Positions 5,466 to 14,817 of a stretch of 37,671 bases of DNA are shown here, piece by piece; within the stretch, counting starts at the first letter, position 1, and each line of letters starts with the position of its first letter. The notes below the pieces were generated by a model. The model saw only the letters and a program-made list of their open reading frames with translations, was not told the origin of the DNA and searched no databases. Position numbers and translations under genes: made by a program. The DNA is taken from positions 1 to 37,671 of the forward strand of contig CALVQM010000003.1 in the NCBI GenBank assembly GCA_944358125.1, in the 5' to 3' direction. Origin of the DNA: an uncultured Bacilli bacterium. GTDB lineage: Bacteria > Bacillota_I > Bacilli_A > RF39 > UBA660.

Positions 5466-6850
5466 TATTTTACCTCATAGATGGTTCCTTCACGAGTATC
5501 TTTTAAAATAATTCCATCTTTTTCTAATTTACCTCTTATTTCATCTGCTAAAGCAAAATCTTTATTCTTTTTAGCTTCACTTCTTTTTTCAATCATTTCT
5601 AAAATATAAACTTCATCTATATTTTTCTTTTCTTCTTTAAGTAAATCTAGAGATAAGACTTTATCCATTTCTTTAATTATTTCTAGTTTTGTAAGATCGC
5701 TAGTATCCTCTTTTAGAATATCATACAATAAAGTTATGGCATTAGCTGTATTTAAATCGTCTTCTAGACATTCTTTAAATCTGGTAACATATGTTTCTTT
5801 TAGCTTTTCATCTAATATACCTTCTTGTTTTAAAGCTTTTATTCTTGCTTTTAATTTGTTATAAGCGTTCTGTGCACCACTTAAAGAGTCAAGAGAAAAT
5901 GTTAATTGTTTGCGGTAATGACTAAGTAAAACCATAAAACGATAGCTTAATGGATTAAAGCCATTTTCTTCTAAATAAGACACGGTTAAAACATGGCCTT
6001 TCGATTTACTCATTTTACCTGTGGCATCATTTAAGTGTTCCCCGTGTACCCAATATTTACACCATTCATGGCCAAGATAAGCTTCACTTTGCGCTATTTC
6101 ATTGGTATGATGAGGGAATATATTATCTACTCCTCCACAATGAATATCTAAATATTCGCCAAGATATTTTATCGAAATACCACTACATTCAATATGCCAA
6201 CCAGGATAACCTTTACCAAAAGGACTATCCCATTTTAATTCCTGGGAATCAAATTTTGATTTGGTAAACCATAAAGCAAAGTCAGTTTTATTTTTTTTGT
6301 TAGTATCTTCTTCTACAGTATCTCTAACACCACTAATTAGTTCTTCACCAACATGATTAGTTAGTTTGTAATAATCATCTAATTTAGATGTATCAAAATA
6401 TACGTTTCCTCCTGCCTGATAAGCATATCCTGTATCTAATAGTTTTGTAATAATTTTAATGTATTCATCTATGTTTTTGGTGGCTGGACTAACAATATCA
6501 GGTTTTTTAATATTTAATTTTTCCGCGTCTTTAAAGAATGCTTCAGTATAAAATTTAGCAATATCTAATACAGTTTTATTTTCTTTTTTAGCACTCTTAA
6601 CCATTTTATCATCACCAGTATCAGCATCACTTGTTAGATGGCCTACGTCTGTTATATTCATAACACGTGTTACATCAAATCCAATAAACCGTAATGTTTT
6701 TTCTAGTATATCTTCCATGATATATGTTCTTAAGTTACCAATGTGAGCATAACTGTAAACCGTAGGACCACAAGTGTACATTTTTACAACTCCCTTTTCC
6801 CAGGGAATAAAATTCTCTATTTTTCTAGTTAAAGTATTATATAATTTCAT
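5465..6850 (-). CDS. cysS: Cysteine--tRNA ligase
   Basis: MYTCGPTVY, HIGN, NITDVGH, DFALW, PGWHIECS, FPHHTNEIAQ, KMSKS; start taken as ATG 6850. Confidence 0.97.
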   Translation of the reverse strand: MKLYNTLTRKIENFIPWEKGVVKMYTCGPTVYSYAHIGNLRTYIMEDILEKTLRFIGFDVTRVMNITDVGHLTSDADTGDDKMVKSAKKENKTVLDIAKFYTEAFFKDAEKLNIKKPDIVSPATKNIDEYIKIITKLLDTGYAYQAGGNVYFDTSKLDDYYKLTNHVGEELISGVRDTVEEDTNKKNKTDFALWFTKSKFDSQELKWDSPFGKGYPGWHIECSGISIKYLGEYLDIHCGGVDNIFPHHTNEIAQSEAYLGHEWCKYWVHGEHLNDATGKMSKSKGHVLTVSYLEENGFNPLSYRFMVLLSHYRKQLTFSLDSLSGAQNAYNKLKARIKALKQEGILDEKLKETYVTRFKECLEDDLNTANAITLLYDILKEDTSDLTKLEIIKEMDKVLSLDLLKEEKKNIDEVYILEMIEKRSEAKKNKDFALADEIRGKLEKDGIILKDTREGTIYEVK

Positions 6851-7002
6851 ATGCAAAGTTTCCTTTCTTGCTATTATTATATTATAAAGTCAGATGAATT
6901 TAAAGAATTATATTAAAGAAAATGATTAATAAATTTGTGATGTCAATTATTAACATTGAACTTTTAAAAAAATAGAGAAATTTGGGGATATTCTTATAAG
7001 AT

Positions 7003-7035
7003 AAAAAGGATTATTAATAAGCATATTAATAATCC
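7003..7035 (-). terminator. Intrinsic terminator of the 171-aa hypothetical gene
   Basis: Perfect 11-bp stem GGATTATTAAT/ATTAATAATCC with a T5 tail on the minus strand. Confidence 0.7.
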
Positions 7036-7046
7036 AAAATTACAAT

Positions 7047-7562
7047 TTAATGACGAGCTTTATTTTCTGTTTCTTCTAACATATAGCCATATGAGGTATT
7101 TATAGCATCAATTAATTTAGTTGCTTGTTCTAAATTAAGATCTCCTTTTTGACATTTAGTTTTAATATTATTCAAGTGTTGTTCCATTTCCATTTCAAGT
7201 TCTTCTCTAGTTTTAGGTCTTGCTACTAAATGTGATTCACTTGCGTTACTTGCTAAAACGCCTTCCGTTATAACTTTATCTGATGGTCTGGTACCATAGC
7301 GATAGCTTAAATATTGATCAGCAGCCTTTTTAGCTTTTTCTTTTTCAATTTGATTTAAATAATCTTGATGTAGCATTTCTTCTATTTGTTTTAAATTATC
7401 TAGTCTTTCATAGCCTTTATCTACAGCTATTTGAATTGATGTACTACTCAAGGTAATTTCTCCTTGAACCCAGCGTTTCATTAGATCTTCTATTTTTTTC
7501 TCTAATTCCCATCTTTCAGAAAATGCTTTCATATAGCTTTCGTATATTTCTTGACTTTTCAT
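7047..7562 (-). CDS. Hypothetical helical/coiled-coil protein, 171 aa
   Basis: Open ORF with GGGAG RBS and its own terminator; no family recognised. Confidence 0.65.
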   Translation of the reverse strand: MKSQEIYESYMKAFSERWELEKKIEDLMKRWVQGEITLSSTSIQIAVDKGYERLDNLKQIEEMLHQDYLNQIEKEKAKKAADQYLSYRYGTRPSDKVITEGVLASNASESHLVARPKTREELEMEMEQHLNNIKTKCQKGDLNLEQATKLIDAINTSYGYMLEETENKARH

Positions 7563-7772
7563 AATAGTATTCTCCCTCTATTATTATTTTAACATTTTTT
7601 TCTTTATTAATATTTATTTTCCTTCTTGACATTTAATTGTCATAATATAAAATTGGCTTGGATTTTAATTTTATTATCACATTTTTCCATAGTTTTCCAT
7701 GTCTATTTTTCACAAAAATCTATAGTTTTTAAACTTTTGTTTTCACCTTTTTCTTATTAGCTAGAATATTTA

Positions 7773-9320
7773 TCATAATTCGTTATTCAGATTGTAGTTA
7801 ATCGATTCTTGTTGTTCATTAATAATCAAGCTTGTAGTTGTAAGTAGCATTCCCGCGATTGATACAGCATTTTTTAAGCTTGTGATAACTACAGTAGTGG
7901 GATCTATTACTTTGGTTTTTGATATTGTTTCAAATTTGTTTTCGAAAACATTATAAATTATATCAAAATCACTGGCTTTTATTTTATTATAAATATTACT
8001 TGGATTAATGCCGACATTTTCTAAAATTTGCATAAACGGTTTGTCTAATGCTTCTTTTAAAATGATTGAACCATTATTTTTTGTTTCTAAATTTTCTTTT
8101 ATTTTTAATAAAATTAAGCCACTTCCGGGAATAATGCCATTTGCTGCACAATTTAGAGCACAAAAGGCATCATCAAATCGCATCTTTTTTTCTCTAGCTT
8201 CCGTTGTAGTAGTAGCTCCCACATAAATAATACCTATTCCGTTGGTTAATTTAGATAGTCTATTACTCTGAAATTCTAATTCAAAGTCATCATCTATGGT
8301 GCTAATTTTTTCTTTTAAGTTATTAATGTATCTTTTTATAACTTTACTTTGCAAATTATTATTAATTGTTGCAAGTTCTTTCGTGATTTTTATTTCTTCG
8401 CACTTTCCTAAATTATTTAAGCTTAATTCATCAGATGATTTTGCTATTTTGGCATTGCTAATTATTTCTAAATCTTTTAAAACTTCCATTTGATGAAGGC
8501 CATATTCCGGTAATTTAAGTAAGGTAACGTTTGTTATTTTACTTAAATTTAAAGATAAAACCTCATTTATTACTTCTTCTGTATAATCAGTAGCTAGTAT
8601 TACAAGAGGTATTCTTTTTTCAATAGTATAATTTATGATTTCACTAATCTCTCCTATTTCGTTTACTTCTTTTAGCATAATTAAGATTAAACTATTTTTA
8701 TATATTATTTCATTTGTGTTATTAAAAAAGTAAGGAGAAGCTAGTAGGGGTTCAAAACTATAACCATTTATAATTTTAGTATAAGTTTCACTGGTTTTAC
8801 TTTCTTCTATCTTGATAGCACTACCCACTTTTAAATACATTCTGGTTATCAGTTTTCCAATGTTTTTGTTGCTAGCAGCGATACTGGCAATATTATAATA
8901 GTTTTCTTCCGTTGGAATTTTACTTTCTTTTTTTATTTCTTCTATTATATTTTCTAAAGCTTCATCTAATTCATTTTTTAATAGGTGAGGATTTAGACCA
9001 TCTTTAATTTTAGCTAATCCACTTTTAAATAGGCTTTCTAATAAAACTAAAGTTGTAGTGGTACCATCTCCTACAGTCTCATCCGTTTTAATAGACGCTT
9101 CTTTGGCAAGAGTAAGAATGGTATTGATCCGTTCATCTTCACTTTCTATGTTTCTAGCTATAGTTACACCATCATTGGTTATAAATGGACTAAACATGGA
9201 ATGATCAATAATCGCATTAGAACCTCTTGGGCCTAAAGTGTTTTTTACAGTACCACATAATAATTCAATTGCTTTTAACTTACATACATTTAATTCTTCA
9301 CCTGTTATTACTTTTTTCAT
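7773..9320 (-). CDS. Divergent group I chaperonin (GroEL/Cpn60 paralog)
   Basis: TLGPRG, ITNDGVTIA, GDGTTT, SPYF, EKKMRFDDA, VIDPT..SLKNAVSIAGMLLTT; no GGM tail; start probably ATG 9320, overlapping the upstream gene. Confidence 0.9.
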   Translation of the reverse strand: MKKVITGEELNVCKLKAIELLCGTVKNTLGPRGSNAIIDHSMFSPFITNDGVTIARNIESEDERINTILTLAKEASIKTDETVGDGTTTTLVLLESLFKSGLAKIKDGLNPHLLKNELDEALENIIEEIKKESKIPTEENYYNIASIAASNKNIGKLITRMYLKVGSAIKIEESKTSETYTKIINGYSFEPLLASPYFFNNTNEIIYKNSLILIMLKEVNEIGEISEIINYTIEKRIPLVILATDYTEEVINEVLSLNLSKITNVTLLKLPEYGLHQMEVLKDLEIISNAKIAKSSDELSLNNLGKCEEIKITKELATINNNLQSKVIKRYINNLKEKISTIDDDFELEFQSNRLSKLTNGIGIIYVGATTTTEAREKKMRFDDAFCALNCAANGIIPGSGLILLKIKENLETKNNGSIILKEALDKPFMQILENVGINPSNIYNKIKASDFDIIYNVFENKFETISKTKVIDPTTVVITSLKNAVSIAGMLLTTTSLIINEQQESINYNLNNEL

Positions 9321-10062
9321 ATTTCTCACTCATTTCCGTCATATATTTCCAATATTTCTTGGGCATAAAATTCATTTGGCAACGTTTGTTTCTTCTTTCT
9401 TTGATACCAATTGTATTAAAGAATGTTGTCCATAATTTTTTTATATTCTCTTCCTGCTCATTATTTTTTATTTCTAATATATTCATATTATTCCCAGATA
9501 TTAAATAGTATTTTTTCTTATCATAGATACTATACATATTTCTTCCTACATCCTTAATTATCCAATATTCATTTTTAAGACGTTTCTTAAAATGAATGGA
9601 TAATAATTCTAATACATTGTTGGTAGGACTAATTTCGGCATATAAGATATGATTTTCTAATTCTTGAAATCTTAAGAAACCTTTTAATTTATGATTTTCA
9701 TTACTGACATATTTGGATATTTTTAAGGAAGCATCTACACACTTTAAATTACGCATCGTAAATATTTTGTCTTGATATTTTAGAGCATTTAATAAGAAAT
9801 AATAAATAATTAGTTCTTTGTTTTGGTTATTTGATAAATAAATATAATAAATTGTTTTAATAATATTTTTGGATATCTGTATTTTATTAATATTAAAATT
9901 ATTATCCAGCTCTAATTCAATGGTTTCATCTAATAAAGATGGCTGATATTCATTTTTAGCACATATATTTAAAGGTTTCGTTTTGAATGCTAATAATTTG
10001 GTTATTAAATCTATTAAAGTAGAAAAATTACCGTCATATAAATAAATCTTATTACTTATCAT
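9298..10062 (-). CDS. TIGR03915-like putative DNA repair protein (DUF4130)
   Basis: YLYDGNFSTL, ENHKLKGFLRF, HFKKRL..EYWII.D, LWTTFFNTIGIKERRN..CQMNFMPKKYWKYMTE. Confidence 0.9.
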   Translation of the reverse strand: MISNKIYLYDGNFSTLIDLITKLLAFKTKPLNICAKNEYQPSLLDETIELELDNNFNINKIQISKNIIKTIYYIYLSNNQNKELIIYYFLLNALKYQDKIFTMRNLKCVDASLKISKYVSNENHKLKGFLRFQELENHILYAEISPTNNVLELLSIHFKKRLKNEYWIIKDVGRNMYSIYDKKKYYLISGNNMNILEIKNNEQEENIKKLWTTFFNTIGIKERRNKRCQMNFMPKKYWKYMTEMSEKYEKSNNR

Positions 10063-11270
10063 GAAAATAAGCTTAATTGTTCTTTATTATTTTCTACTTT
10101 GGGATTATCTTCTAAAATTAAATTAGCTTCAATAAAACTCTTTTTAAATAAATCACTATTAATAAAATACTTTCCATTACATGTAATAAAATATTTGGCT
10201 CTTTTTATGACTACTCCCATCTTTTTTAGATCATTAAAGGTTATTTTAAAGTTTTTCCGACATGCGATAATTCTTTTAGCTGATTTAATGCCAATACCAG
10301 GAACTTTTAACAAATCATAGTAAGATACTGTATTTATTTCTTTTGGGAATTCATTTAAATGACGTAAGGCCCAATTAGCTTTAGGATCCATTAAAATATT
10401 AAAATTGGGATTATCTTCATCTAGTAAATCTTTAACTCTAAAGCCATAAAAACGAAGAAGCCAGTCGGCTTGATAAAGTCTATTTTCTCTTACTAAAGGA
10501 GGAGTTTTAAGCATGGGTAATACTTTATCTTTATTTACAGGAATATAAGCCGAATAAAAAACTCTTTTTAAATCATAATTTTTATATAATGCTTCACTTT
10601 TAGTCATTATATCTAAATCCGTTTCTTTAGTAGCACCAATAATCATTTGAGTGCTTTGGCCGGCTGGAACGTAGGATCTATTGTGATTTTCCTTGACATA
10701 GGACATTATTTTAGTAACTTTATTTTCTTCTTTATTGGGAGCTAAAAGTTTTAGACCACTCTCTGTTGGTAATTCAATATTAGCACTTAATCTATCAACC
10801 AAATTTCCTAATTCTTTTAGTAAGTACTCGTTTGCACCAGGTATAGCTTTACAGTGAATGTACCCATGAAAATGATATTTATATCTTAACATTTTGATTG
10901 TTTTAATAAGTAGTTCCATCGTATAATCCGGACTTTTAATTATGCCGGAACTTAAAAACAATCCTTCTATATAGTTTCTACGGTAAAAATTCATTGTTAA
11001 CTCACATATTTCTTCTGGTGTAAATATTGCTCTTTTAACATTGTTGCTTCTTTTATTAATACAATATTTGCAATCAAAAATACAACAGTTGGTCATAAGA
11101 ATTTTTAAAAGAGAAATACATCTACCATCACTAGCAAAAGAGTGACATATTCCCGAGAAAGCGGCATTACCTATACCTCCTTCATTTTTTCTTGTGCTGC
11201 CACTTGATGAGCATGAGACATCATACTTGGCACTATCGGCTAAAATTGTTAATTTTTCTTTTAATGTCAT
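10059..11270 (-). CDS. TIGR03916-like putative DNA modification/repair radical SAM protein with HhH domain
   Basis: KLTILADSAKYDVSCSSSG, GICHSFASDGRCISLLK, CxxxCxxC (CIFDCKYC), RENRLYQADWLLRFYGF, HhH LLKVPGIG. Confidence 0.93.
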   Translation of the reverse strand: MTLKEKLTILADSAKYDVSCSSSGSTRKNEGGIGNAAFSGICHSFASDGRCISLLKILMTNCCIFDCKYCINKRSNNVKRAIFTPEEICELTMNFYRRNYIEGLFLSSGIIKSPDYTMELLIKTIKMLRYKYHFHGYIHCKAIPGANEYLLKELGNLVDRLSANIELPTESGLKLLAPNKEENKVTKIMSYVKENHNRSYVPAGQSTQMIIGATKETDLDIMTKSEALYKNYDLKRVFYSAYIPVNKDKVLPMLKTPPLVRENRLYQADWLLRFYGFRVKDLLDEDNPNFNILMDPKANWALRHLNEFPKEINTVSYYDLLKVPGIGIKSAKRIIACRKNFKITFNDLKKMGVVIKRAKYFITCNGKYFINSDLFKKSFIEANLILEDNPKVENNKEQLSLFS

Positions 11271-11288
11271 AAATAATCACCTAGCAAT

Positions 11289-11328
11289 ATTATAATACAA
11301 ATGTATGTGTTAGTCAAACAAATATTCG
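11289..11328 (-). promoter_or_regulatory. sigma-A promoter with overlapping LexA (SOS/Cheo)-like box
   Basis: Minus strand TTGACT (11312-11317), 17 bp, TATAAT (11289-11294); CGAATATTTGTTTG (11315-11328) resembles CGAAC-N4-GTTCG and overlaps the -35. Confidence 0.7.
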
Positions 11329-11359
11329 CTTCCAATATTTAACAAAAAAAGAATTATCA

Positions 11360-11782
11360 TTAAAGATAATCCCATATGCCTTTACCATTATCATAATCAT
11401 CTAAATTTTCCAAAAATTCTTCCATATTTTCCTTTATCGTAAAAGCTACAAGTTCATATTTTTCTTTATCGATGTATCCTAATTCGTTCATGCACTTGTA
11501 AAACTTCTTAATACTGGAAGCTGTTTCTTTAATACTACTTCTTGATGACCACATACATTTTCTAATAAACCAGTCTCCTAAAAAAGGATACACAGATGAG
11601 GTTCCTTCTTCCATGGTTTCACTTTCATAGTATGGCAAATAATTATTTAAATACAATTCCATGTTATTTTTATGTTTGTTAATTGTTTTGGTTGACAGAT
11701 TTTGTTTTTTTAACCAAGCTTTAAACTCTTGGATAAATTTTTCATTTCTTTTTTCATTTTTTTCAATTTCTAATTCATTCAT
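11360..11782 (-). CDS. Small stand-alone protein resembling the tyrosine-recombinase N-terminal SAM-like (core-binding) domain
   Basis: EFKAWLKKQNLSTKTINKH and SSIKKFYK patterns; no catalytic R-H-R-Y domain; GGAG RBS and TGGTATAAT -10 upstream. Confidence 0.55.
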   Translation of the reverse strand: MNELEIEKNEKRNEKFIQEFKAWLKKQNLSTKTINKHKNNMELYLNNYLPYYESETMEEGTSSVYPFLGDWFIRKCMWSSRSSIKETASSIKKFYKCMNELGYIDKEKYELVAFTIKENMEEFLENLDDYDNGKGIWDYL

Positions 11783-11857
11783 AATACTATCTCCTTTTTT
11801 GGTAATCTTATTATACCAAACTAATTATTTTTTTAAAGTATTTTAAAAGACAATCTT

Positions 11858-12589
11858 TTATTTTTGATCGTCTTTTAAGTTGTTATATATGTTCATAAAT
11901 CTTTCATATAATTTTTGACAGTTTTCGACATTCATTTCCGGAACATTTTTTAAGGGATTTTCTAATTTTAAATTTTCATATTTAGAAAAGCCTAAATGAT
12001 GGAAAGGCAAGAACTCTATTTTTTCAATATTTTTTATTTTTAACAAATAAACAGCTAATTCTTGTAAATAAGCATCATTATCCATCATGCCGGGTACTAT
12101 AACTTGTCTAATCCAGACTGGCTTGCCACTTCTATTTAAACATTCAATAAATTTTTCACTTTCCGAAATATCCCTACCCGTTAGTTTTTTATACCCTTCG
12201 TCATTAGGATATTTTATATCAAATAGGACTAAATCGATTAATGATAATATTTCTTCATATTTACCTATTCCCACACCGGCCGTATCTAAGGCAATATGAA
12301 TACCCTCTTCTTTTAGTTTCTTGCAAATATCTAGTAAAAAATCAATTTGTAATAAGGGTTCACCACCAGAGAATGTTACCCCACCATTGTTTCTTTTAAA
12401 ATAAGGTTTATTACGAAGTATCTTGGCTACTAATTCATCAACTGTGTAATTTTTATTACCCATATGCCACGTTTCGGGATTATGGCAATATAAACATCTT
12501 AGCATGCAGCCATTTAGAAAAATAACAGTTCTAATACCAGGGCCATCAACAAGGCCAAAGGTTTCAATGGAATTAACACTTGCTTGCAT
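11858..12589 (-). CDS. pflA: Pyruvate formate-lyase activating enzyme
   Basis: VDGPGIR, GCMLRCLYCHNPETW, GGVTFSGGEP, LPFHHLG; overlaps the pflB stop. Confidence 0.96.
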   Translation of the reverse strand: MQASVNSIETFGLVDGPGIRTVIFLNGCMLRCLYCHNPETWHMGNKNYTVDELVAKILRNKPYFKRNNGGVTFSGGEPLLQIDFLLDICKKLKEEGIHIALDTAGVGIGKYEEILSLIDLVLFDIKYPNDEGYKKLTGRDISESEKFIECLNRSGKPVWIRQVIVPGMMDNDAYLQELAVYLLKIKNIEKIEFLPFHHLGFSKYENLKLENPLKNVPEMNVENCQKLYERFMNIYNNLKDDQK

Positions 12590-14817
12590 TATATTTTCTC
12601 GTGGAAAGTTCTAGCAATAACTTCTTCTTGTTGACTCCTCGTAAGTCTGTTAAATCTTACGGCATAGCCTGATACTCTTATTGTTAATAGTGGATATTTA
12701 TCAGGATTTTCCATGGCATCAATTAATGTTTCTCTATTTAGTACATTAACATTTAAATGATGAGCGCCTTGGATGAAATAACCCTCTAATAAGCTAACTA
12801 AATTATCAATTTGTTCATCTTTGGTATGACCTAGAGCACTTGGAACGATAGAGAAAGTATTAGAAATACCATCACGACAACATTTTGCGTATTCTAATTT
12901 AGCAACAGAATTTAAGCTTGCTATAGCGCCACTTTCATCTCTACCATGCATTGGGTTTGCTCCTGGAGCAAAGGCAACACCTTTTTTTCTACCGTCGGGA
13001 GTTGAACCAGTTTTTGAACCATATACAACATTTGATGTTATAGTAAGGACAGATAAAGTTGGGTGAGCATTACGGTAACATTTATGTTTAGCAAGTTCTT
13101 CATAGAACTTTTCTGTCACTTCTTTTGCTATATTATCGACACGATCATCGTCATTACCATATTTAGGGAAATCTCCTTCTATTTCAAAATCAACAGCTAT
13201 ACCTTCTTCATTACGAATAGGTTTAACACGCGCATATTTAATTGCTGATAGTGAATCTGCTGCAACAGATAGTCCTGCTATACCATAAGCCATAAGTCTA
13301 TTTACATGGGTATCATGAAGAGCCATTTGTCCTGCTTCATAAGCATATTTATCATGCATATAATGAATAATATTCATAGCATTAGAATATACTTCGGCTA
13401 CTTTCTCAAGCATTTTGAAATAATTTTTCTTTACACTTTCATAATCTAGCACTTCATCCGTATTTTTTTCAAAACCTTCGATTACATGAGTACCTTTTAC
13501 TTCATCAATACCACCATTCATGGAATAAAGTAGAGCTTTGGCTAAATTACAACGAGCACCAAAGAATTGCATATCTTTACCCTCACGCATAGCCGATACA
13601 CAGCAAGCTATAGCATAATCATCACCATAAATTGGTCGCATAACATCATCATTTTCATATTGGATAGCATCTGTATCAATACTCATTTTGGCACAATACT
13701 TTTTAAAGTTTTCTGGTAAATGTTCACTCCATAAAATGGTCATGTTAGGCTCGGGTGCTGGATCAAGATTTGTTAGAGTATGAAGTAATCTGTAGCTAGT
13801 TTTAGTAACCATACTTTTACCATTTTCGGTAATTCCTCCAATAGATGCGGTAACCCAAGTTGGATCTCCTGAAAATAATTCATCATATTCAGGTGTTCTT
13901 AAATGTCTTACTAGTCTTAATTTAATAACAAAGTTATCAATAATCTCTTGGATTTCACTTTCGGTAATAGTTCCTTCTTTTAAATCTCTTTCAAAGTAAA
14001 TATCAAAGAAAGCATCCACACGGCCTAAACTCATTGCGGCGCCATTGTTTTCCTTTACAGCAGCTAAATAAGCAAGATAAGTCCACTCTACAGCTTCTTT
14101 ACTATTTTTGGCTGGTCTTGAAATATCAAAACCATAACGACTAGCCATTTTTTTGATTTCATCTAAAGCTTTAATTTGCATAGATACATCTTCTCTTAAC
14201 TGAATAAGTTCGTTATCCATTGGGCCTAAAAGACTTGCTAAATCACGCTTCTTTTCTTCAATTAAATAATCAATACCATATAAAGCTACACGTCTATAAT
14301 CACCAATAATACGACCACGGCCGTAAGCATCTGGAAGGCCTGTTAATAATCCGGCATGACGTGCCCGTCTAATTTCATCAGTATAGGCATCAAATACACC
14401 ATCATTATGTGTTTTTCTAAATTCATTGAAATATTTATCTACTTCAGGATTTAGTTTATAACCATAAGCTTCAAGCTCTTCTCTAACCATACGCATACCA
14501 CCATATGGGTTTACAATTCTTTTTAATGGTTTATCAGTTTGAAGACCTACGATACAATCATCTTCACTACATATATATCCTGGTTCAAAAGCATTAATTC
14601 CTGACATGTGATCTACATCAATATCTAATACTTTCTTCTTTAATTCCTCTTTTAGAAGTTCAGTGCAAGTATTCCATATTTTATCTGTTTTCTTGGTTGT
14701 TCCTTCTAAAAAAGACTCATCTCCATCGTAAGCATGATAATTATTTTTAATAAAATCGCTTACATTTATTTCTTTAGTCCAAAGACCATCTTTAAAATTA
14801 CGCCATTCTTCTTTCAT
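12589..14817 (-). CDS. pflB: Formate C-acetyltransferase (pyruvate formate-lyase)
   Basis: [23 protein letters not shown] (catalytic Cys pair), [10 protein letters not shown] glycyl-radical motif. Confidence 0.98.

Follow-up and report, generated by a model that had tools for sequence, protein, structure and literature searches.

Gene Organization of the Locus

The DNA analyzed here, referred to as the window, is a stretch of 37,671 nucleotides from an uncultured Bacilli bacterium (assembly GCA_944358125.1, contig CALVQM010000003.1), and its subject is a set of three overlapping minus-strand genes which, together with their control region, occupy positions 7773–11328. They encode a radical S-adenosylmethionine (rSAM) protein, its DUF4130 partner and a divergent chaperonin of the Cpn60/GroEL type. 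The host genome (G000) has a size of 1.21 Mb, a GC content of roughly 27% and a completeness of 93.6%. Its nearest named relative is a chicken-gut metagenome-assembled genome (MAG) labelled Candidatus Caccenecus avistercoris, which shares 97% identity in Cpn60 and 95% in the rSAM protein and is placed by NCBI under Bacilli incertae sedis. The features of the locus are collected in Table 1.

Table 1. Features of the rSAM–DUF4130–Cpn60 locus, given in positions of the window.
Feature	Position	Strand	Score or basis
LexA-box-like operator 1, CGAATATTTGTTTG	11315–11328	−	Overlaps the −35 hexamer; 16.4 bits
LexA-box-like operator 2, CATACATTTGTATT	11294–11307	−	Between −35 and −10, running into −10; 12.2 bits
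Sigma-70-type promoter, TTGACT-17-TATAAT	11289–11317	−	11/12 consensus positions matched
rSAM protein with helix-hairpin-helix domain (TIGR03916, putative DNA modification/repair)	10059–11270	−	626.5 bits
DUF4130/TIGR03915 partner protein	9298–10062	−	217.2 bits
Divergent group I chaperonin (Cpn60/GroEL-like), 515 aa from the ATG, without GroES partner and without Gly-Gly-Met (GGM) tail	7773–9320	−	Profiles, alignment, tree, predicted structure

The first two open reading frames (ORFs) encode proteins of 403 aa and 254 aa, while the third runs from 7773 to a GTG start at 9329 and has its ATG at 9320. The sequence ATGA at 10062–10059 is common to the rSAM stop and the DUF4130 start, and the Cpn60 ATG lies 22 nt before the DUF4130 stop (9300–9298); an overlapping three-gene unit behind one promoter, as described in an earlier annotation made from the letters alone (the sequence-only reading), is thereby confirmed. 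In 102 of 107 loci, the position corresponding to the Cpn60 start falls within the 3′ end of DUF4130. Both members of the rSAM/DUF4130 pair score above the cut-offs of their profiles, which are 343.5 bits for TIGR03916 and 112.25 bits for TIGR03915, and the rSAM translation shows CIFDCKYC, a CX3CX2C cluster motif, with matches to both Pfam Radical_SAM and HHH_3.

The promoter is the joint-best match within positions 6800–12000, tied with a plus-strand TTGACA-16-TAAAAT at 7626–7653 (also 11/12), and promoter-like matches as a class are not commoner in this region than in shuffled sequence (34 observed versus a mean of 35.5). Its −10 element and the AGGTGA ribosome-binding site upstream of rSAM are kept in relatives. 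A scan of the sequence found no terminator-like site between the operon genes, and upstream of the Cpn60 start there was no internal promoter-like site matching more than 9 of 12 positions; one message would probably carry all three genes.

According to the family description, a domain of the uracil-DNA glycosylase (UDG) type is frequently, but not obligatorily, fused or adjacent to the TIGR03916/TIGR03915 pair. No UDG-family gene lies beside the pair at this locus, as had been noted earlier, and the only matches to this family in the genome are on contigs C42, C22 and C4.

Identity of the Chaperonin

The third protein is recognized by Cpn60_TCP1 of Pfam with 148.7 bits (cut-off 34.3) but reaches only 338.4 bits with the GroEL equivalog model TIGR02348, whose cut-off is 582.1; among the GroEL models, only the subfamily model NF009487 is passed (357.6 versus 352). 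The label "divergent" is right because the TIGR02348 score falls far below its cut-off. The host genome carries a single Cpn60, and no Cpn10/GroES was found in the whole of this 93.6% complete genome. In the window, the CIRCE repeat (controlling inverted repeat of chaperone expression) gives 0 matches at up to 3 mismatches, and HrcA is encoded in the genome. A divergent Cpn60 with neither groES nor CIRCE beside it, as proposed from the sequence, is thus what the profile scores and the genome and window searches find.

Of 44 genomes of the genus, a single one, a 70% complete MAG, encodes Cpn10, in a canonical groES–groEL that lies on a separate contig. This canonical groES–groEL (G010:C137, L153/L054; a 27-kb contig) is present besides the linked Cpn60, and its GroEL is long-branched and placed close to the tree base; a housekeeping copy may have been retained here, or the contig may be mis-binned.

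Conservation of the Linkage

DUF4130 lies directly upstream in all 29 genus loci found with Cpn60, and the rSAM gene is also visible in 25 of them, the remaining 4 being cut by contig ends. Among the genus genomes examined in both searches (n = 37), 30 carry both Cpn60 and DUF4130 and 7 carry neither. The family was surveyed with 151 genomes from 150 genera; Cpn60 was found in 31 and DUF4130 in 30, and 120 of the 151 have neither. Cpn60 follows directly downstream on the same strand in 30 of 30 DUF4130-bearing genomes, and the sole family genome with Cpn60 but without DUF4130, G463, has a normal CIRCE–groES–groEL arrangement. It can be seen that, in this family, the linked chaperonin persists only where the rSAM pair persists. 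In a class-wide sample of 400 genomes, DUF4130 was found in 8, namely 7 of this family and G376 of another family.

Searching with the rSAM protein yielded 80 loci, of which 5 end too early to be informative, and the complete triple is present in 74 of the other 75. The arrangement first seen in one genome therefore extends across the genus, the DUF4130-bearing part of the family and nearly all informative loci. The flanks of the triple are not conserved, as 198 flanking ORFs fall into 118 clusters; given unconserved flanks and a conserved linkage, rSAM, DUF4130 and Cpn60 themselves constitute the conserved unit, which is compact and consists of these three genes. In five genus genomes without the block, the DNA upstream of cysS consists of unrelated genes, and no clean deletion scar could be defined.

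SOS-Type Operators

Operator 1 has 2 mismatches to the consensus CGAAC-N4-GTTCG. A CGAAT-N4-GTTT[G/A] pattern overlapping the −35 hexamer is present in 19 of 21 genus rSAM promoters, and the 14-mer of operator 1 recurs in 17 of the 21, either in the CGAATATTTGTTTG form (12) or in the CGAATATTTGTTTA form (5). Operator 2 is likewise conserved in the genus, in the form C[A/G][A/T]AC-N4-GT[A/T][T/G], with CAAAC/CGTAC/CGAAC-N4-GTAT/GTTG in this place in relatives, and ATACATTTGT is common to operator 2 and the lexA promoter. LexA itself is encoded in the host genome.

A symmetrised matrix was built from 36 operator sites of the 21 genus promoters because the local box is AT-shifted and the canonical Cheo box CGAAC-N4-GTTCG is almost absent, with only 1 site genome-wide at 9 or more of 10 positions. 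Operator 1 is the top-scoring matrix site of the genome, yet it is a member of the training set. At 13 bits or above, the matrix finds 16 sites in the host genome, 13 of them just upstream of an ORF, and the genes behind the top sites include recA, recX, lexA (two sites), a Y-family DNA polymerase and dnaX. Among rSAM upstream regions at loci outside the matrix training, 68 of 83 reach 12 bits or more; for the remaining ORFs of these loci the figure is 17 of 350. The SOS-type control proposed for the operon is thus borne out at the level of sequence elements: two operators overlap the promoter, they are conserved in the genus, and the same motif precedes core SOS genes. The operon is probably repressed by LexA. 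SOS control of the pair is not new in itself, because published work already ties it to SOS or LexA in the passages cited (PMC3765255, PMC3828012, PMC12392091).

Strong LexA-type boxes also precede other genes of G000, which encode an ORF6N/Rha-like protein, a RhuM-family protein, a Bro-N protein, a weak HipA-like match and two small ORFs without a family (C37:176-877, C39:8177-9202, C10:6183-7037, C84:505-1695, C56:2136-2483 and C15:4399-4842). These genes, of which ORF6N/Rha, RhuM and Bro-N are of phage type, resemble genes of mobile elements or antirepressors within the SOS regulon.

Origin of the Chaperonin

Forms with groES survive in the same family. In G463, an ordinary groES–groEL is preceded by CIRCE-like repeats, while two genera (G504 and G484) have the order rSAM–DUF4130–groES–groEL. 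The small ORFs of G504 and G484 pass the Cpn10 cut-off of 21.1 bits with 48.2 and 52.1 bits, respectively, the groES ATG of G504 overlaps the DUF4130 stop, and both operons have a strong SOS-type box upstream (16.1 and 15.8 bits).

A careful maximum-likelihood analysis of 38 Cpn60s, with E. coli as the root, places all 23 linked copies in a single clade (support 99/98), which is sister to the groEL of G463 (92/94); G504, G376, G508, G468 and G547 stand at the base of this clade, below a long-stemmed crown group (100/100). An 82-row quick tree agrees with this topology. Judged from the trees and gene orders, the linked Cpn60 is a captured housekeeping groEL, taken in together with groES and then stripped of it. 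It is no extra paralog, because the linked clade is sister to the G463 groEL and groES-bearing intermediates survive.

The sequence-only reading had expected the linked Cpn60 to be a paralog distinct from a housekeeping groESL of the same genome, an expectation that did not hold: the Cpn60 is the sole copy and descends from the family's own housekeeping groEL. It had also named a sole groEL branching with housekeeping copies as an argument against a dedicated chaperonin. The copy is indeed the only one, but its branching agrees only by half, as it sits in a clade of its own next to a housekeeping copy.

The Cpn60 of G376 nests beside that of G504, apart from six normal GroELs of the family to which G376 belongs, where half of the sampled genomes are without GroEL. 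This placement suggests that the block moved between families as a unit, though a mis-binned contig is possible. A phage origin was rejected; the GroEL-like protein of phage EL (6tmt) is matched at E 1.6e-22, far more weakly than bacterial Cpn60 (8e-82).

Functional State of the Chaperonin

To E. coli GroEL (K-12 record), 68 crown Cpn60s were aligned, and the roles of its residues (ATP/Mg site, allosteric salt bridges, ring contacts and apical positions) are presumed here as known from the GroEL literature. The ATP-site positions D52, D87, G88, T89, T90, D398, G414 and G416 are present in 68 of 68 sequences, T91 in 63 and D495 in 66, while position 415 is variable, with S in 31 sequences and G in 22. 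Of the apical residues, Y203 is kept in 58 and F204 in 55 of the 68, and positions 199, 237, 259 and 263 stay mostly hydrophobic, whereas 234 and 264 have turned into small or polar residues. Residues R197, E386 and R268 of the salt bridges are not kept, nor are those of the inter-ring contacts, R452, E461, S463 and V464, and in translation the tail has no Gly-Gly-Met repeats.

The AlphaFold2 model of Cpn60 has a pLDDT (predicted local distance difference test) of 91.9 and a template-modelling (TM) score of 0.86 over 524 columns against 4v4o; solved group I chaperonins are matched in all three domains at 29–33% identity. A complex prediction for Cpn60 with DUF4130 gave a score of 0.00 (mark 0.32), which speaks neither for nor against an interaction.

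Three comparisons with unsaturated synonymous divergence (dS) were used for the ratio of nonsynonymous to synonymous substitution (dN/dS), which amounts to 0.11–0.30 for Cpn60, 0.19–0.20 for DUF4130 and 0.07–0.08 for rSAM. By these ratios, Cpn60 shows itself to be under purifying selection. It is the fastest-evolving of the three, with genus identities of 43–97% compared with 64–93% for rSAM, and intact frames of about 500–525 aa are found in nearly all loci. Three Cpn60 genes appear disrupted: G027 by 2 TAA stops, L143 by a frameshift and G484 by an early stop. The split Cpn60 of G400 was dropped as evidence of decay, the apparent split being a run of 100 N.

Between G000 and its closest relative G036 (L034/L065), dS is 0.38–0.50 in rSAM and DUF4130 and only 0.057 in Cpn60, which points to recent recombination with a breakpoint close to where DUF4130 meets Cpn60; the DUF4130 gene of G036 carries a frameshift.

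Proposed Mechanism and Alternative Explanations

The following course of events is proposed. In an ancestor of this family of gut Bacilli, groES–groEL would have come to lie directly behind rSAM/DUF4130 and thereby under the SOS promoter, a form that the genera of G504 and G484 retain. The groES gene would then have been lost, and the remaining Cpn60 would have diverged fast with its ATPase site preserved. From most of the family the chaperonin has disappeared entirely, and it persists only where the rSAM pair does. Upon DNA damage, Cpn60 would be made together with rSAM and DUF4130 from the same message, and would act as an ATP-driven chaperonin without co-chaperonin, the rSAM/DUF4130 complex being its main or only remaining client. 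A chaperonin dedicated to the Fe-S radical SAM system would fit the co-occurrence described above. That the locus is a LexA-repressed rSAM–DUF4130–Cpn60 operon whose Cpn60 is a GroES-independent, ATP-driven chaperonin serving mainly or only this pair is considered evenly balanced between right and wrong. A more specific form of this proposal would be that the lineage purged its other GroEL-dependent proteins until the SOS-induced rSAM/DUF4130 pair was left as the one obligate client, so that GroEL was kept only in the operon of this client, without GroES, and was lost with it; this is quite conceivable, though it falls somewhat short of an even chance.

Several observations weigh against this proposal. 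At locus L131, an intact rSAM gene (187-1452) is followed by unrelated ORFs, and tblastn found no remnant of DUF4130 or Cpn60 there; the locus is either a true break-up of the triple or a chimeric contig. Even perfect co-occurrence is no proof of functional dependence, because a single event can lose or move three adjacent genes, and the absences recorded in the surveys are provisional because the genomes are MAGs. The matrix shows no genome-wide excess of sites (45 observed versus about 73 expected from shuffling at 11 bits or above), so that its support comes solely from where the sites lie and which genes they precede. The loci outside the matrix training are not fully independent, because some belong to the training genus. 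At two loci, G376 (2.0 bits) and G379 (8.9 bits), the box is weak or missing.

Contigs from RNA libraries count among the opposing observations as well, although no conclusion on transcripts or damage induction is drawn from them. Contigs from the 5′ end of rSAM (11196-11614 and 11155-11414, 0 differences each; 3 runs, X1-X3) cross the promoter and both boxes into orf140, the ORF directly upstream, and could stem either from transcripts that start further upstream and read through or from DNA present in the libraries. In four metatranscriptome runs of one study, short contigs cover parts of Cpn60, for example 7976-8206 (0 differences) and 8923-9162 (1 difference); among the RNA-library contigs listed, none bridges the DUF4130/Cpn60 junction, and the libraries may contain DNA.

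The strongest alternative is linkage without dependence, in which Cpn60 is a general stress chaperone that happens to lie in an SOS operon and the 3.5-kb block is deleted or transferred in one piece. The adjacency that lets a single event remove all three genes agrees with it, as do the fluid neighborhood of the block, the occurrence in G376, where a block with a Cpn60 nested in the linked clade looks like a whole-block transfer into another family, and the roughly eightfold change in dS from DUF4130 to Cpn60 in the comparison of G000 with G036, an indication of recombination at this junction. However, a clean loss of Cpn60 alone is seen in 0 of 30 block-bearing genera and in 0 of 74 loci although this gene evolves fastest, and its overlap with DUF4130 is kept in all but 5 of the 107 loci. 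In addition, the 120 of 151 family genomes without any Cpn60 indicate that a general chaperonin role is dispensable there. This alternative is regarded as rather unlikely, though it deserves serious attention.

It is improbable that Cpn60 has taken on a new job, in which it would no longer fold proteins but belong to the repair machine, for example as an ATP-driven remodeller or a DNA-associated subunit. The loss of the salt-bridge and inter-ring positions, the polar turn of apical positions 234 and 264, the absence of GroES, the invariant ATP site and a possible translational coupling to DUF4130 through the overlapping genes would agree with such a change; set against it are the full three-domain GroEL fold, which is predicted with high confidence, and the apical Y203 and F204 and hydrophobic positions 199, 237, 259 and 263, which are mostly kept, while the residue roles invoked are themselves taken from the GroEL literature. 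Finally, a decaying remnant, in which a groEL that has lost its groES is itself disappearing and is present by historical accident, would explain the faster evolution relative to its neighbors, the score below the equivalog cut-off and the three disrupted genes, but it is very improbable in view of the low dN/dS, the catalytic columns invariant in 68 diverse sequences and the intact frames in nearly all loci, and the few disruptions could be MAG assembly errors.

Comparison with Known Systems

Established GroES-independent or one-pathway GroEL homologues include the phage EL protein, chlamydial GroEL2 and GroEL3, mycobacterial GroEL1 and the nif-linked groESL3 of rhizobia. The Cpn60 described here shows weak sequence similarity to such specialised homologues (the chlamydial GroEL2/3 models give 92–96 bits against cut-offs of 600), and it differs from them in being the only copy, whereas they are extra paralogs beside a normal groESL. 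With the housekeeping groES–groEL, it shares the group I fold, the ATP-site residues and a descent from the family's own groEL, and HrcA is still encoded. Unlike the HrcA/CIRCE-controlled groES–groEL operon, the locus has no GroES and has SOS boxes in the place of CIRCE, and its chaperonin has a sub-equivalog score, no GGM tail and changed salt-bridge and ring positions.

It has been reported that a LexA-type operator is proposed upstream of CAC3343-CAC3344 of C. acetobutylicum (PMC3828012, in the passage cited), and SOS contexts of the TIGR03916/TIGR03915 pair are described more generally in a passage of PMC3765255. According to the cited part of a 2026 preprint (10.64898/2026.08.19.745780), AlphaFold 3 predicts an rSAM/DUF4130 heterodimer, and the pair is predicted to act on nucleic acid in this form. 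The present locus resembles such an SOS pair of SplB-like rSAM and DUF4130, for example CAC3343-CAC3344, in that both proteins pass the curated scores, the genes are adjacent and coupled, and a LexA-type operator lies upstream. It differs in having a chaperonin as its third gene and no UDG-like domain or gene adjacent; the passages cited above contain no chaperonin.

In the Mollicutes, most members are reported to be without GroE (PMC5810989 and PMC13245659, in the parts cited). The family studied here is likewise a reduced-genome Bacilli lineage in which most genomes have lost the chaperonin, but its survivors are GroES-less copies tied to one repair operon rather than normal groESL operons. 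A term search of PMC13245659 returned nothing on GroES-less GroEL or radical SAM. Similarly, the literature search found no paper describing a chaperonin in an rSAM/DUF4130 operon; supplementary files, which lay outside this search, might list such neighborhoods. Overall, the usual GroES/GroEL has disappeared from a family of gut bacteria with small genomes, save mainly for a GroES-less, fast-evolving GroEL that stands third in an SOS-type rSAM operon, which suggests that the chaperonin was kept for one client system.

If this is true, the locus would offer a natural group I chaperonin that has been narrowed down to a single client system and functions without GroES, with a bearing on what makes proteins GroEL-dependent and on how far GroEL can go alone. 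It would also open up the chemistry of the widespread, SOS-linked TIGR03916/TIGR03915 pair to study; should the pair depend on a chaperonin of its own for folding, producing it together with Cpn60 may make it tractable in vitro. Moreover, the family would show how a stress operon captured a housekeeping gene step by step, with the intermediates still alive.

Neighboring Genes

The ORF directly upstream of the operon, orf140 (140 aa; 11360–11782, minus strand), has its only match in the SAM-like domain at the N-terminus of phage integrases (PF13102, E 3e-5), carries a promoter-like site of its own at 11837–11810 and recurs upstream of rSAM in two close relatives (L065 and L068). A pyruvate formate-lyase with PFL-like and Gly_radical domains and its rSAM activase are encoded just upstream of the operon at 11858–14817 (minus strand), which places a second radical SAM system 0.6 kb from the rSAM/DUF4130 system.

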